A DNA stretch of 52,686 nt from Candidatus Xenobia bacterium (GTDB lineage Bacteria; Vulcanimicrobiota; Xenobia; Xenobiales; QWHO01): contig BTUM01000056.1 in assembly GCA_045863235.1 (NCBI GenBank), positions 1-52,686 of the forward strand, written 5' to 3'. Position 1 is the first letter of the stretch; every line of letters starts with the position of its first letter. Made by a program: the position numbers and the translations under genes. This document shows positions 23,235 to 26,343 of this stretch, one piece after another. A model generated the notes under the pieces. The model had not been told where the DNA came from. It did no database searches and was given only the letters and a program-made list of their open reading frames with translations.

Positions 23235-24275
23235 CTACGGCTGGATCAGGTTGTAGATCGGAAGAAAGGCCGCCACCATAGTGGTCCCGATCACCACTCC
23301 CATGCAACCCATGAGCAGTGGCTCCAGGACGGCGGTGACCATGCCGACCTTGTCGTTGAGGTTGCTCTCGATCAGGTCGGCCACCCGGTAGAGACTGCGA
23401 TGGGTGTCGCCCAGCTCGTCGGAAACGGACAGCATCCCGGACAGGAAGGTGGGAAACACCGCCTGTCGCGAGAAGCTCTCACCCAGGAGCCCGCCCACTC
23501 GGACCTCGCGGCAGATCTGATCGTAAGCCTCCTTGACCAGGATGCTCTCCTGGCCCACTAGATAAGCATAGTTGAGCGCTTTGAGCAGAGGGATCCCGCA
23601 CTCGATCATCAGGGCCAGCTGCCGGATGCTGATCAGGACCCTGGTCTGGGCATAGAAATCCCCCATGGGGGTGTATTCCTCATACAACCGCCGGATGTGC
23701 GGGCCGACGACGGGATGACGGCTGGCGACGAACAGTGCCGCCACCGGAATCGCCGACAGGCAAAGGAGGATCAGCATTTTGGGGCTGGTCAAGAAGATCA
23801 GGGCGCGGGTGAGGGCCGGGGGCTCGACACCGGCGTCGGCAGTCACCTTGACGATCATGGGGAACACGAAGAAAAGGATCACGAACACCATGGCCGCGCA
23901 CGACACGAGCAGGAAGGTGGGATAGACCAGGGCGCTCTTGAGCGCGCGCGAGGTGCGGTTCTGCCGCTCCAGGGTGGCCGCCAGCCGGCGCAGGCAAGTG
24001 TCAATCGTTCCGGTGGCCTCGCCGATCTCCACCACCCGGTAATATTCGGGCGGAAAGCTCTCCGGCAAGCGCGCCAGGGATTTGGAGAAGGAGTGCCCGA
24101 CCTGAAGAGACGAGCTGAGGGCTCGGCAGGTCTCCCCCACGAGGCTGTCATCGCCCCGGCCCAGCGCATCCACCGCCGAGCCCAGCGTCATCCCGCAGCG
24201 GAGCAAAGTCTCCAGGCGGACCGTCAGCCCCAGGAGCTCTTCCGAGTTGAGACCTTTCCGGCGGAACCACTCCAC
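23235..24275 (-). CDS. Type II secretion F / PilC family platform protein
   Basis: Two GspF repeats: GEATG...LKSALVYP and DELG...LEPLLM...FLPIY. Confidence 0.92.
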   Translation of the reverse strand: MEWFRRKGLNSEELLGLTVRLETLLRCGMTLGSAVDALGRGDDSLVGETCRALSSSLQVGHSFSKSLARLPESFPPEYYRVVEIGEATGTIDTCLRRLAATLERQNRTSRALKSALVYPTFLLVSCAAMVFVILFFVFPMIVKVTADAGVEPPALTRALIFLTSPKMLILLCLSAIPVAALFVASRHPVVGPHIRRLYEEYTPMGDFYAQTRVLISIRQLALMIECGIPLLKALNYAYLVGQESILVKEAYDQICREVRVGGLLGESFSRQAVFPTFLSGMLSVSDELGDTHRSLYRVADLIESNLNDKVGMVTAVLEPLLMGCMGVVIGTTMVAAFLPIYNLIQP

Positions 24276-24439
24276 AAAGGAGTATTTCGCTTTGGACGCG
24301 AGTTCTCATTCCGGGAGACCCCGCCGTCTGTCTCGTCGGGCCAGCGCCATCACCACGGCAGCATTCGGACGTGTTCTGTTGCCGAGCTGCTGGATGCGCA
24401 GGGCAGGGAATCTCGTTTCGCCAGCCTAATTATGCGGCC

Positions 24440-24733
24440 GTGCGACGACTGGCTCTACTCGTTCTGCTGGCGGCTTTTCTGGCTCAGGCCTTCGAGCTTT
24501 GCTGCCTGAGCGAGCCCTGCTGCTGCTGCAGCGAGTCGACTCCCTGCGAGCACAGCCTGACGCTGTCTTCGGTGGAGCCTGCGGCTCTGCCTCAGAGCCA
24601 GGTCCGAGTGGAAGGCCCCGTCGAGACGGCAGCGACGCCGGCCGGGAGCCTCGCCCGGGACCCGGTGCCGAGCGCCCGACTTGCATCCAGACTCTTGCTG
24701 CGGGGGCCTCCCGCATCCCTTGCCTTGAACTGA
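24440..24733 (+). CDS. Secreted Cys-rich leader peptide with C-terminal RGPP motif (DUF2946/CutF/CruR-like)
   Basis: GTG start; signal peptide MRRLALLVLLAAFLAQA; CCLSEPCCCCSESTPCEH; ends LLLRGPPASLALN. Confidence 0.75.
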   Translation: MRRLALLVLLAAFLAQAFELCCLSEPCCCCSESTPCEHSLTLSSVEPAALPQSQVRVEGPVETAATPAGSLARDPVPSARLASRLLLRGPPASLALN

Positions 24734-24748
24734 ATTCAAAGCAAGGGA
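24716..24748 (+). promoter_or_regulatory. RBS-sequestering hairpin between the leader and downstream gene
   Basis: tcccttgccttgaa (24716-24729) pairs 13/14 with ttcaaagcaaggga (24735-24748), which contains most of the AAGGGAG RBS. Confidence 0.75.
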
Positions 24749-24758
24749 GAGAATCGTC

Positions 24759-25382
24759 ATGGACTTCAAGATCCTGGCGCTGGCCTTTTTGCTGGCGCTG
24801 AGCCTGCCCGTCCGGGCCCAGAGCAGCGTACCCTCCTGACCCGGCTGACCCGCTGAGGGCGCCCCGGTCCGGGGCGATGAAGACATAGCAGCCGCGCGCT
24901 GGACGTACTCGGTGCGTGTGATTCCCGGCGAGATCGATCGCGCCGCCTGGCGCAACACCCTGATGTACCGAGTGGGGGAAGATTTCCAACTGGGAGTGGA
25001 ATACAACCCGCTGGTGGGGCAGGTGGGACCGCTGGTCAACTGGCGCGTGATGCGCGAGTCGGACAGCCAGCCTGCCATCATCCTGGGCACCAGCTCGGAC
25101 CGCATCGGCACGCCCTACGGGCAGGCCTACTACCTGACCGTCAGCAAGGAGGTGACTGATGGGCTGAGCCTCTATGTGGGAGCCTCTTACAGCGAGTTCG
25201 AGGACAAGATCCTGTACCCGGCCGGAGCCACCTTCCAGATCGACGAAAACTGGGGCGGGATGGTGCTCTACGATGGGCGCAATTTCACGCCCGTCGCCAG
25301 CTACAGCTGGGATACCTACAGCCTGTCAGTGCTTGTGGCCCGCATGCGCCATCCGGGGGTGGCCTTCTCGGTCGGGTTTTAG
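24759..25382 (+). CDS. Putative selenoprotein: outer-membrane beta-barrel-like protein with N-terminal UxxU motif (207 aa with two Sec)
   Basis: ATG 24759 with RBS; signal peptide MDFKILALAFLLALSLPVRA; TGA at 24837 and 24846 in frame with ORF 24912-25382; alternating beta-strand pattern, ends VAFSVGF. Confidence 0.8.
24860..24876 (+). promoter_or_regulatory. Putative bacterial SECIS element
   Basis: Stem cgcccc/ggggcg with apical GGUCC, starting 11 nt after the second UGA. Confidence 0.7.
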
Positions 25383-25488
25383 GCTCTGAGTTGAGAATGA
25401 TGGGAGAATGCGTTGGAGGAACGACCTGGCCGATGGTCCTGAAGAGACGCGGCGATGCCCGCAGGATGAGCCCGGGCCAGCCTGAGGG

Positions 25489-26343
25489 GTGAGCGACCAG
25501 GTCCGGATCACCAGCCCCGAGCGGGTGGTCTATCCCGAGTCGGGATTCACCAAGCTTCAGGTGGCCGAGTATTACCGGGCGGTGGCCGAGCGCATCCTGC
25601 CGCACGTGGCCGGGAGACCACTCTCGCTGGTGCGCTGCCCGCAGGGGCTGATCCGGCCCTGCTTCTACCACCGCCACCGCACGCGGGGCTTTCCGGCCTC
25701 GGTGCGGGGGGTGATGGTGCAGCAGTTGGACGGGCCCGAGGAGCACCTGGTGATCGACGATCAGGACGGGCTGCTGGCTCTGGTGCAGTTCGGAGGGCTG
25801 GAGATCCACCCGTGGGGCTGTCGGGCCGACCGGCTGGATGAGCCTGATCGGCTGGTACTGGACCTGGACCCCGATCCCGAGCTGCCCTGGGCGGCCGTGA
25901 TCGAGGCCACCCTGGAAGTGCGCGAGCGGCTGCTGGGGATAGGCCTGGAAAGCTTCGCCAAGACCACCGGGGGCAAGGGGATGCACGTGCTGGCGCCCTT
26001 CGAGCCGGGGCCGAGCTGGGAGCAGCTGGGCACGTTGGCCCGCTCGCTGGCGGGCGTCATGGTGGCTGACTCGCCGGACCGCTATCTGGACGTGATGACC
26101 AGGAAGAAGCGGCGCGGAAAGATCTACCTCGACTTTCAGCGCAACAAGCCGGGAGCCACCTCGGTGGCGGCCTACTCGACCCGGGCCCGCCCGGGAGGAC
26201 TGGTCTCCACCCCGGTGGCTTGGAGCGAGGTCACCCCGGCGCTCGATCCGCACGGATTGACGCTGGCCACGGTGCCGGGGCGGGCCGACCCCTGGGTAGG
26301 GTTCTTTGAGCTGCGTCAGGCGCTGCCGTCATCAGGAGAGTGA
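25489..26343 (+). CDS. LigD polymerase (primase-polymerase) domain protein
   Basis: RPLSLVRCPQG, LEIHPW, PDRLVLDLDP, KTTGGKGMHV, YLDFQRN, YSTRARPG. Confidence 0.92.
   Translation: MSDQVRITSPERVVYPESGFTKLQVAEYYRAVAERILPHVAGRPLSLVRCPQGLIRPCFYHRHRTRGFPASVRGVMVQQLDGPEEHLVIDDQDGLLALVQFGGLEIHPWGCRADRLDEPDRLVLDLDPDPELPWAAVIEATLEVRERLLGIGLESFAKTTGGKGMHVLAPFEPGPSWEQLGTLARSLAGVMVADSPDRYLDVMTRKKRRGKIYLDFQRNKPGATSVAAYSTRARPGGLVSTPVAWSEVTPALDPHGLTLATVPGRADPWVGFFELRQALPSSGE

Follow-up and report, generated by a model that had tools for sequence, protein, structure and literature searches.

The DNA analysed here (hereafter the window) is a stretch of 52,686 nucleotides of contig BTUM01000056.1 from a Candidatus Xenobia bacterium (GCA_045863235.1). 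On its forward strand, a short leader ORF with an export signal, a hairpin that hides a ribosome-binding site, a gene for an outer-membrane beta-barrel protein with a UxxU motif (U, selenocysteine, Sec) and a SECIS-like hairpin follow one another (Table 1). These four parts had been recognised in a preliminary description of the DNA, and our analysis finds all of them in place. The locus is flanked by a divergent PilC/GspF gene (23235-24275) and a stand-alone LigD polymerase domain (25489-26343); the latter also lies beside the barrel gene in genome G002, and neither flank is conserved in other lineages.

Table 1. Features of the leader-barrel locus, in window coordinates
Feature	Position	Strand	Basis or remark
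Leader ORF, 97 aa, CutF-like uORF	24440..24733	+	Export signal, Cys/His cluster, RGPP
Putative Sec signal peptide of the leader (Arg-Arg, hydrophobic core, AQA)	24440..24490	+	Inspection and hydrophobicity rule
Putative metal-binding cluster of the leader: Cys21, Cys22, Cys27-30, Cys36, His38	24500..24553	+	Conserved in G000 (host), G002 and G004
RGPP codons of the leader, predicted stall site (Pro-Pro in P/A sites)	24701..24712	+	Analogy with CruR toeprint
Anti-Shine-Dalgarno (anti-SD) hairpin across the leader stop	24716..24748	+	5' arm (24716-24723) would lie under an RGPP-stalled ribosome
Shine-Dalgarno-like AAGGGAG of the barrel gene	24743..24749	+	Sequence; paired in folds
UxxU outer-membrane beta-barrel selenoprotein gene (very probable)	24759..25382	+	207 aa including two Sec
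Putative barrel signal peptide, ending VRA	24759..24818	+	Sequence inspection; inspected homologues have an in-frame signal peptide 5' of the TGAs
TGA-CCC-GGC-TGA, very probably Sec27-Pro-Gly-Sec30	24837..24848	+	TGA conservation; CxxC homologues
Bacterial SECIS, 7-bp stem, GUC loop	24860..24876	+	Covariation; fits the model of PMC13188914
12-stranded barrel domain with C-terminal Phe	24900..25379	+	AlphaFold2 model

Selenocysteine codons and fold of the barrel protein

The barrel reading frame crosses TGA at codons 27 and 30, and its product consists, in order, of a signal peptide, QSSVPS-U-P-G-U-P and 177 residues up to the terminal Phe. Contigs that span both TGAs were recovered from three out of four further sequencing runs and show no other letter there, so the TGAs are not assembly errors. 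The locus sample comprised the 80 best of 583 confirmed metagenome loci together with 10 genome loci; counting the window's own, 78 distinct loci have enough upstream DNA, and all 78, from three lineages, have TGA at both positions and TAA or TAG at neither. The codons around them vary synonymously, Pro being written with all four of its codons and Ser with both AGY and TCN, which shows that the protein is under selection across the stops. In a survey of the phylum, 11 of 301 genomes match the barrel and all 11 carry the two TGAs. Among 32 distant homologues retrieved out of 150 listed matches, eight have CxxC and one has CxxW at the UxxU site, two further CxxC homologues came from a separate search, and the CxxC and UxxU motifs fall in the same alignment columns. 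One homologue (P0160) reads CVGW at this position, reflecting either a gene caller's translation of TGA as Trp or a Sec-to-Trp change.

The host carries tRNA-Sec (selC), selA, selB and selD; its SelD gene (G000 C23:78929-79858) itself has one in-frame TGA. Among 41 related genomes, SelB scores above the cut-off in all 10 barrel carriers and the barrel gene is present in none of the 15 SelB-negative genomes, all of one family; 16 SelB-positive genomes also lack the gene. When the downstream part was used as query, 667 relatives (protein clusters at 90% identity) were confirmed out of 728 candidates; the 120 relatives listed begin at or after UxxU, and none of them includes the motif. A protein search of genome contigs yielded one true relative, L001 (identical to G002), and one spurious match of 16 residues.

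The SECIS hairpin is 17 nt long and begins 11 nt past the second TGA, its loop lying 18 nt from the second UGA and 27 nt from the first. These spacings, the 7-bp stem and the G-first GUC loop agree with the published bacterial model, which has a G in the first two loop positions, a distance of 16-37 nt past the UGA and a stem of 4-16 bp (PMC13188914). Although the hairpin is not significant when folded as a single sequence (z 0.34 and -0.67), covariation across 38 loci supports this element of the preliminary description: 80.6% of cells are paired, 46 cells are changed on both sides compared with 16 in shuffles (0/500) and 5-23 in slid controls, and the covariation score is 0.434 against 0.138 for shuffled alignments. 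A second hairpin directly after the second UGA might have served the first UGA as a SECIS of its own, but was rejected for lack of covariation; since, in addition, both distances lie within 16-37 nt, a single SECIS probably serves both UGAs. We conclude that the barrel protein very probably carries two selenocysteines, and insertion of Sec at both UGAs by SelB using one SECIS is the step of which we are most confident.

Modelled with AlphaFold2, the barrel has 12 strands (pLDDT 93, pTM 0.84). The nearest fold is KdgM (4pr7; Z 16.8, rmsd 2.6, 152 aligned), and the COG4313 channel Pput2725 (4rl8; Z 15.7, rmsd 2.9, 158 aligned) and FapF (5o65; Z 15.6, rmsd 2.5, 158 aligned) score similarly, at sequence identities of only 8-15%; these proteins share the 12-stranded fold, which shows no shared function. 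When the N-terminus was modelled with Cys for Sec, residues 3/9-27 aligned with the N-terminal segments of the COG4313 channel, FapF and EstA, which we take to be lumen plugs. The UxxU segment itself has a pLDDT of about 50 (48-56), so its location in the lumen is tentative. A weak YjbH signal (PF06082) was found in 12 of 69 barrel members at E <=1 (best 7.7e-4) and one Atlas cluster at 0.95 is 83% YjbH, whereas the window's own protein has no match to PF06082 at E <=1. None of KdgM, the COG4313 channel, FapF and YjbH is known to carry Sec or a CxxC plug. On this modelling it is highly probable that the product folds as a 12-stranded outer-membrane barrel, with the UxxU segment probably in its lumen. 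Sec recoding and the barrel fold are thus both strongly supported, and the earlier proposal that the regulated gene encodes a Sec-containing envelope protein is upheld by the conserved TGAs, the CxxC homologues, the SECIS and the barrel model.

The leader and the hidden ribosome-binding site

The leader starts with GTG, has a hydrophobic N-terminus, contains seven Cys and one His within residues 21-38 and ends with RGPP at residues 88-91, six residues ahead of the stop. Over codons 1-45, it and its G002 orthologue are separated by 15 synonymous and 3 non-synonymous changes, indicating purifying selection. Orthologues occur in all three barrel-bearing genomes of the genus and in neither of two barrel-lacking ones. 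In the host and in G002 the leader directly adjoins a bare barrel gene; in G004 it heads a YHS-TlpA gene, which the barrel gene follows.

The preliminary description had likened the leader to both DUF2946-type and CutF leaders. It has no match in NCBIfam or in Pfam (E up to 1 for Pfam), and a genome-wide search with PF11162 gave four weak matches, none at the leader. In the DUF2946 family of CruR a CXXC precedes the RAPP motif by 45 plus or minus 2 residues (PMC9426467), whereas here the distance to the motif is 51 residues from the last Cys and 57 from C27-C30. We therefore rejected the DUF2946 assignment, although the C-terminal RAPP-class motif and the N-terminal export signal (by the hydrophobicity rule) are shared. 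The rule given for CutF-like leaders (<150 aa, PP in the last 15 residues, a signal peptide and a same-strand gene at <=1000 nt; PMC9973294) does describe it, with 97 aa, PP at 90-91 and the next ATG 25 nt away. An Atlas search with the leader returned unnamed clusters and a DUF6769 lead that shares few features. Judged by its sequence features, the leader is a fresh member of the known class of CutF-like arrest-peptide leaders, so that only the CutF half of the earlier assignment stands.

The 71-nt region of the anti-SD hairpin folds at -28.7 kcal/mol (z -3.39, with 0/200 shuffles as stable), and widening it to 101 nt lowers the z score to only -1.62; in G004 the anti-SD arm and the SD have changed together. 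In CruR, toeprinting places the stalled ribosome with Pro codons in the P and A sites (PMC12992588), and we infer by analogy that a ribosome stalled at the leader's RGPP would cover the 5' arm of the anti-SD stem. The predicted effect on SD opening is a modest rise in the host, from 0.07 to 0.31 (0.11 to 0.09 in the shortest folding window), and in G002, from 0.23 to 0.39, and a reversal, from 0.24 to 0.10, in G004.

The positions of -10-like boxes suggest that the leader and several MerR-driven copies are carried on leaderless mRNAs. A -10-like box is present at 24427-24433, and such boxes 6-7 nt 5' of start codons also occur at L096, L099, L017 and L018. A sigma-70 consensus scan of the window found no promoter, this box included, and Rfam has no match in 24200-25600. 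Among contigs from four RNA-library runs, which cannot show transcription, the leader is covered in one run and the UxxU region in three, and none spans both leader and barrel.

The host genome holds further ORFs of this kind: eight fit a signal-plus-RAPP/RGPP rule, compared with four for AAPP/AGPP. Three of the other seven head TolC-CzcB-CusA/CzcA operons (on G000 contigs C87, C13 and C5; loci L117, L118 and L119), two of these leaders being His-rich, and this genome seems to use arrest peptides generally to control metal efflux. A 12-Cys RAPP leader (G000 C51:16499-16852, L120) is followed by a secreted, metallothionein-like 135-aa protein of repeated Cys-Cys units, and RAPP/RGPP leaders also stand before a CNNM/CorC-like pair (G000 C15:23499-23750, L121) and a CPA2 antiporter (C114:2228-2521, L122).

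Regulators and partners of barrel genes across lineages

We surveyed the regulators of 82 distinct loci and judged the 42 with at least 1600 nt of upstream DNA, the other 40 being too short. A Cys-rich Pro-Pro leader is present in 17/42, a divergent MerR gene in 8/42 and neither in 17/42. The leader rule, which was written after seeing the leaders, picks out 1 of 600 random windows. As read from a quick tree, three leaders are RGPP types in the host's genus, three are RAPP/RGPP types whose clade includes a named Armatimonadota protein, and the remaining 11 end in PP...LRI, in a clade that holds named Acidobacteria proteins. A leader family that has a membrane segment and Cys clusters and ends in DPPLxRLxxLRI lies about 1.0-1.15 kb 5' of the barrel at L029, L035, L037, L039, L044, L050, L057, L059, L066, L072, L078 and L087; the five members scanned have no Pfam or NCBIfam match, and the family is a candidate arrest-peptide class mostly devoid of the Arg of RAPP.

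At seven of the eight MerR loci, a TTGAC(T/A)-19/20 bp-TAnnnT promoter is oriented toward the barrel operon; L050 was not counted, since the operator-like site of its MerR points to merR and away from the barrel operon. The MerR proteins at the seven loci carry Cys76, Cys80, Cys111 and Cys117-120, and the five scanned score best on CadR-PbrR or MerR models, none reaching a family cut-off. In the MerR family, a Cys that opens the dimerisation helix marks a sensor of divalent ions (CueR has Ser there), and promoters with 19-20-bp spacers are activated upon metal binding (PMC11672702). All seven loci sit in one lineage of the quick tree and may thus reflect a single event. The leader is therefore one of two interchangeable regulators of the barrel gene, the other being a divergent MerR, and replacement by MerR argues for induction by an excess of a divalent soft metal and not for Cu uptake. 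In light of these results, the thiophilic-metal link drawn in the preliminary description holds for a soft-metal context, with Cu uptake the less likely use. Barrel homologues do have upstream leaders, in 17 of 42 loci and across lineages; the adjacency is recurrent and not obligatory, in view of the seven MerR loci and the 17 with neither regulator.

Many barrel homologues begin with a signal peptide and a TlpA/ResA-like thioredoxin, the latter preceded by a YHS or a CCxxC domain, which read in frame into the UGAs; others have YHS-TlpA as a separate gene immediately upstream, and some have YHS only, or nothing, before the motif (partner domains were confirmed for selected ORFs). The TlpA/ResA-like thioredoxin is fused or adjacent in most homologues, and YHS domains are present on long CxxC homologues. 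Five of six Cys homologues have no NCBIfam match and the sixth has only a weak match to a YHS domain. In the host genome, no orthologue of the YHS/TlpA partner was found, the best full-domain match having 26% identity. In Acidobacteria-like fusions (L029:2050-2988 and related loci), TlpA is preceded by an N-terminal CCxxC domain that no Pfam model matches.

Neighbours were compiled for 43 loci and selected ORFs among them identified. CDF efflux genes neighbour the barrel at four and CusA/CzcA or CusB/OEP genes at two, and other neighbours are CopA with CueR (one locus), HMA, ArsA and a chromate transporter. Some operons contain a second, larger barrel-like protein (L033:757-2010, L044:3906-5252, L042:3694-5043 and L072:4012-5355), with a weak PF13557 match in L033, and some of these loci add a second thioredoxin and HMA or PCYCGC proteins. 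A Cys-rich secreted protein is encoded 5' of the barrel at L022:215-688.

A proposed selenium-dependent response to soft metals and its relation to known systems

In the mechanism that we propose, the leader would be exported during its synthesis, and a pause of the ribosome at RGPP would open the lower anti-SD stem and allow translation of the barrel, which by analogy with CutF and SecM we regard as likely. Metal bound to the leader's periplasmic Cys cluster would, with somewhat less assurance, prolong the pause, so that excess metal switches the barrel on. Once SelB and the SECIS have supplied Sec at both UGAs, the product would form the outer-membrane barrel described above. When selenium is lacking, the window's product would end after the signal peptide and six residues, and fused homologues would release a free periplasmic YHS-TlpA protein. 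Slightly favoured on balance is a last step in which a pore diselenol would catch soft ions (likeliest of the Hg/Cd/Pb/Zn type, possibly Cu/Ag), a periplasmic TlpA would keep it reduced and YHS carry the metal, the ions being either trapped or exported from the periplasm. Stalling, its polarity, the ion and the direction of movement are all what we infer at this locus. Taken together, our results point to a soft-metal-induced, selenium-dependent envelope defence module, to which we give a probability of about 0.52 and which more likely handles Hg/Cd/Pb/Zn-type ions than serves Cu uptake; the 17 of 42 loci with neither regulator count against it, as do the modest and in G004 reversed prediction for SD opening, the confinement of the seven MerR loci to one lineage and the failure to find a YHS/TlpA partner in the host genome, and at one locus the flanking genes are CopA and CueR, a point in favour of Cu. 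A more specific version remains tentative and rather doubtful, namely a diselenol-plugged outer-membrane pore, recharged by thioredoxin and made only when a toxic soft metal (sensed by arrest peptide or MerR) and selenium are both present. If true, selenium supply would also determine, for the fused forms, whether the thioredoxin stays tethered to the outer membrane or is set free in the periplasm, and bacteria would have a dedicated genetic route for using selenium against Hg/Cd-type toxicity.

Other readings have to be weighed against the defence module. That the TGAs are true or leaky stops, with the barrel arising from re-initiation or selenium-free readthrough, is highly improbable. Both are followed by C, UGA-C being a weak stop context, and databases start the barrel downstream; yet no locus of 78 has TAA or TAG, CxxC homologues exist, the SECIS covaries, and SelB accompanies the gene in 10/10 carriers while 0/15 SelB-negative genomes (one family) have it. 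The proposed restart codon is moreover GTC or GTT in 22 of 78 loci, the window included, and a restart product would be devoid of a signal peptide. Very unlikely, too, is a leader that senses cysteine supply, as a polycysteine attenuator, or secretion capacity, in the manner of SecM or ApdP: its CC and CCCC runs and probably leaderless GTG ORF do resemble mycobacterial attenuators (10.1101/834739), and RGPP motifs serve Sec monitoring as well (PMC12992588), but the Cys run lies about 170-190 nt 5' of the hairpin whereas RGPP abuts it, a metal-type MerR replaces the leader, and His-rich sister leaders head metal efflux operons.

Two readings keep the metal signal and change what the barrel does with it. 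In the first, which we consider unlikely, metal stress would induce a selenol/thiol relay from TlpA to UxxU that reduces disulfides or metalloid oxyanions, outside the cell or in the envelope, with metal neither passed nor held. A thioredoxin fused to the barrel or encoded beside it in most homologues, the redox nature of most known selenoproteins (PMC13188914) and the ArsA and SenA-like neighbours at single loci are consistent with such a relay; TlpA is, however, missing from the window's copy, some homologues have YHS only or nothing before the motif, and the regulators and most neighbours are metal-specific. Improbable in our view is uptake of the CruR kind, with stalling as the default under metal scarcity, relief by metal and a pore that imports Cu or another needed metal. 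CruR, which has a RAPP motif, works in this way (PMC9426467), the fold resembles the uptake porins KdgM and NanC, and YHS domains and CopA/CueR occur at some loci. MerR-activated promoters at seven loci nevertheless imply induction by metal, the sister leaders head efflux pumps, and the short intergenic region with its SD-hiding stem is CutF-like, CruR having a 162-nt region and Rho termination.

The defence module thus remains our preferred reading, and the data suggest that the leader probably switches the pore on under toxic soft metals, as part of a selenium-dependent metal defence at the cell surface. The locus bears on a possible direct role of selenocysteine in countering the toxicity of soft metals to bacteria. 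Arrest-peptide control and Sec recoding meet here on a single short mRNA, a compact system in which to ask if two UGAs three codons apart can share one bacterial SECIS. The natural swap of leader and MerR is a rare handle on non-Cu ligands and on the switching direction of such leaders.

The barrel has no Pfam match and matches none of the NCBIfam 20.0 families at E up to 1. Compared by description, its family has no row among the 119 catalogued prokaryotic selenoprotein families in Table 1 of PMC13188914, and term searches of the available text of BSepDB (PMC13326102), deep-Sep (PMC12013277) and PMC4807772 returned no barrel entry. Our literature search, which covered article texts, found neither a description of the barrel family nor an arrest peptide that regulates a selenoprotein; the supplementary uORF lists of PMC12992588 and PMC9973294 may include these leaders. 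The family is widespread and uncatalogued; databases contain just truncated pieces of its proteins, and the lineages that carry it have seldom been searched for selenoproteins. Sec in an envelope barrel is shared with the MtrB/PioB-type GSU2204 (NF041027) and the FCYXU TonB-dependent receptor (NF049945), and a two-Sec UxxU motif tied to metal binding with the UxxU metal-binding protein (NF041115), as these are catalogued in PMC13188914. In contrast to them, the window's protein is a 12-stranded barrel of 160 residues with both Sec on its N-terminal segment, in a family with YHS/TlpA partners and no NCBIfam match.

Among arrest peptides, the closest likeness is to CutF of Rhodobacter capsulatus (PMC9973294; bioRxiv 10.1101/2025.02.05.636593), in the forms described there: both have fewer than 150 aa, a signal peptide, a Cys cluster, a C-terminal Pro-Pro and an SD stem-loop, and CutF-like leaders often precede CusC/CzcC operons, as do three sister leaders in the host. 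The leader differs in having RGPP and not PPP, CC-x4-CCCC-x5-C-x-H and not CxxxC, a selenoprotein barrel as target instead of a multicopper oxidase, and a MerR that replaces it in relatives. With CruR of Bordetella pertussis, as characterised in PMC9426467, it shares an exported Cys-containing uORF, a RAPP-class motif and an outer-membrane protein gene downstream; the difference lies in a 25-nt intergenic anti-SD stem as opposed to 162 nt and Rho termination, in the predicted opposite polarity and in a small barrel where CruR has a TonB-dependent transporter. The RAPP/RGPP arrest peptides surveyed in PMC12992588 likewise combine a small exported ORF, a C-terminal RGPP and a metal-homeostasis context, and thioredoxin-domain genes are an enriched class downstream of them; as described, that survey dropped downstream genes annotated as unknown, which would exclude a truncated, unannotated barrel gene. 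The regulator is thus of a known type, and the selenoprotein family placed under it is new.
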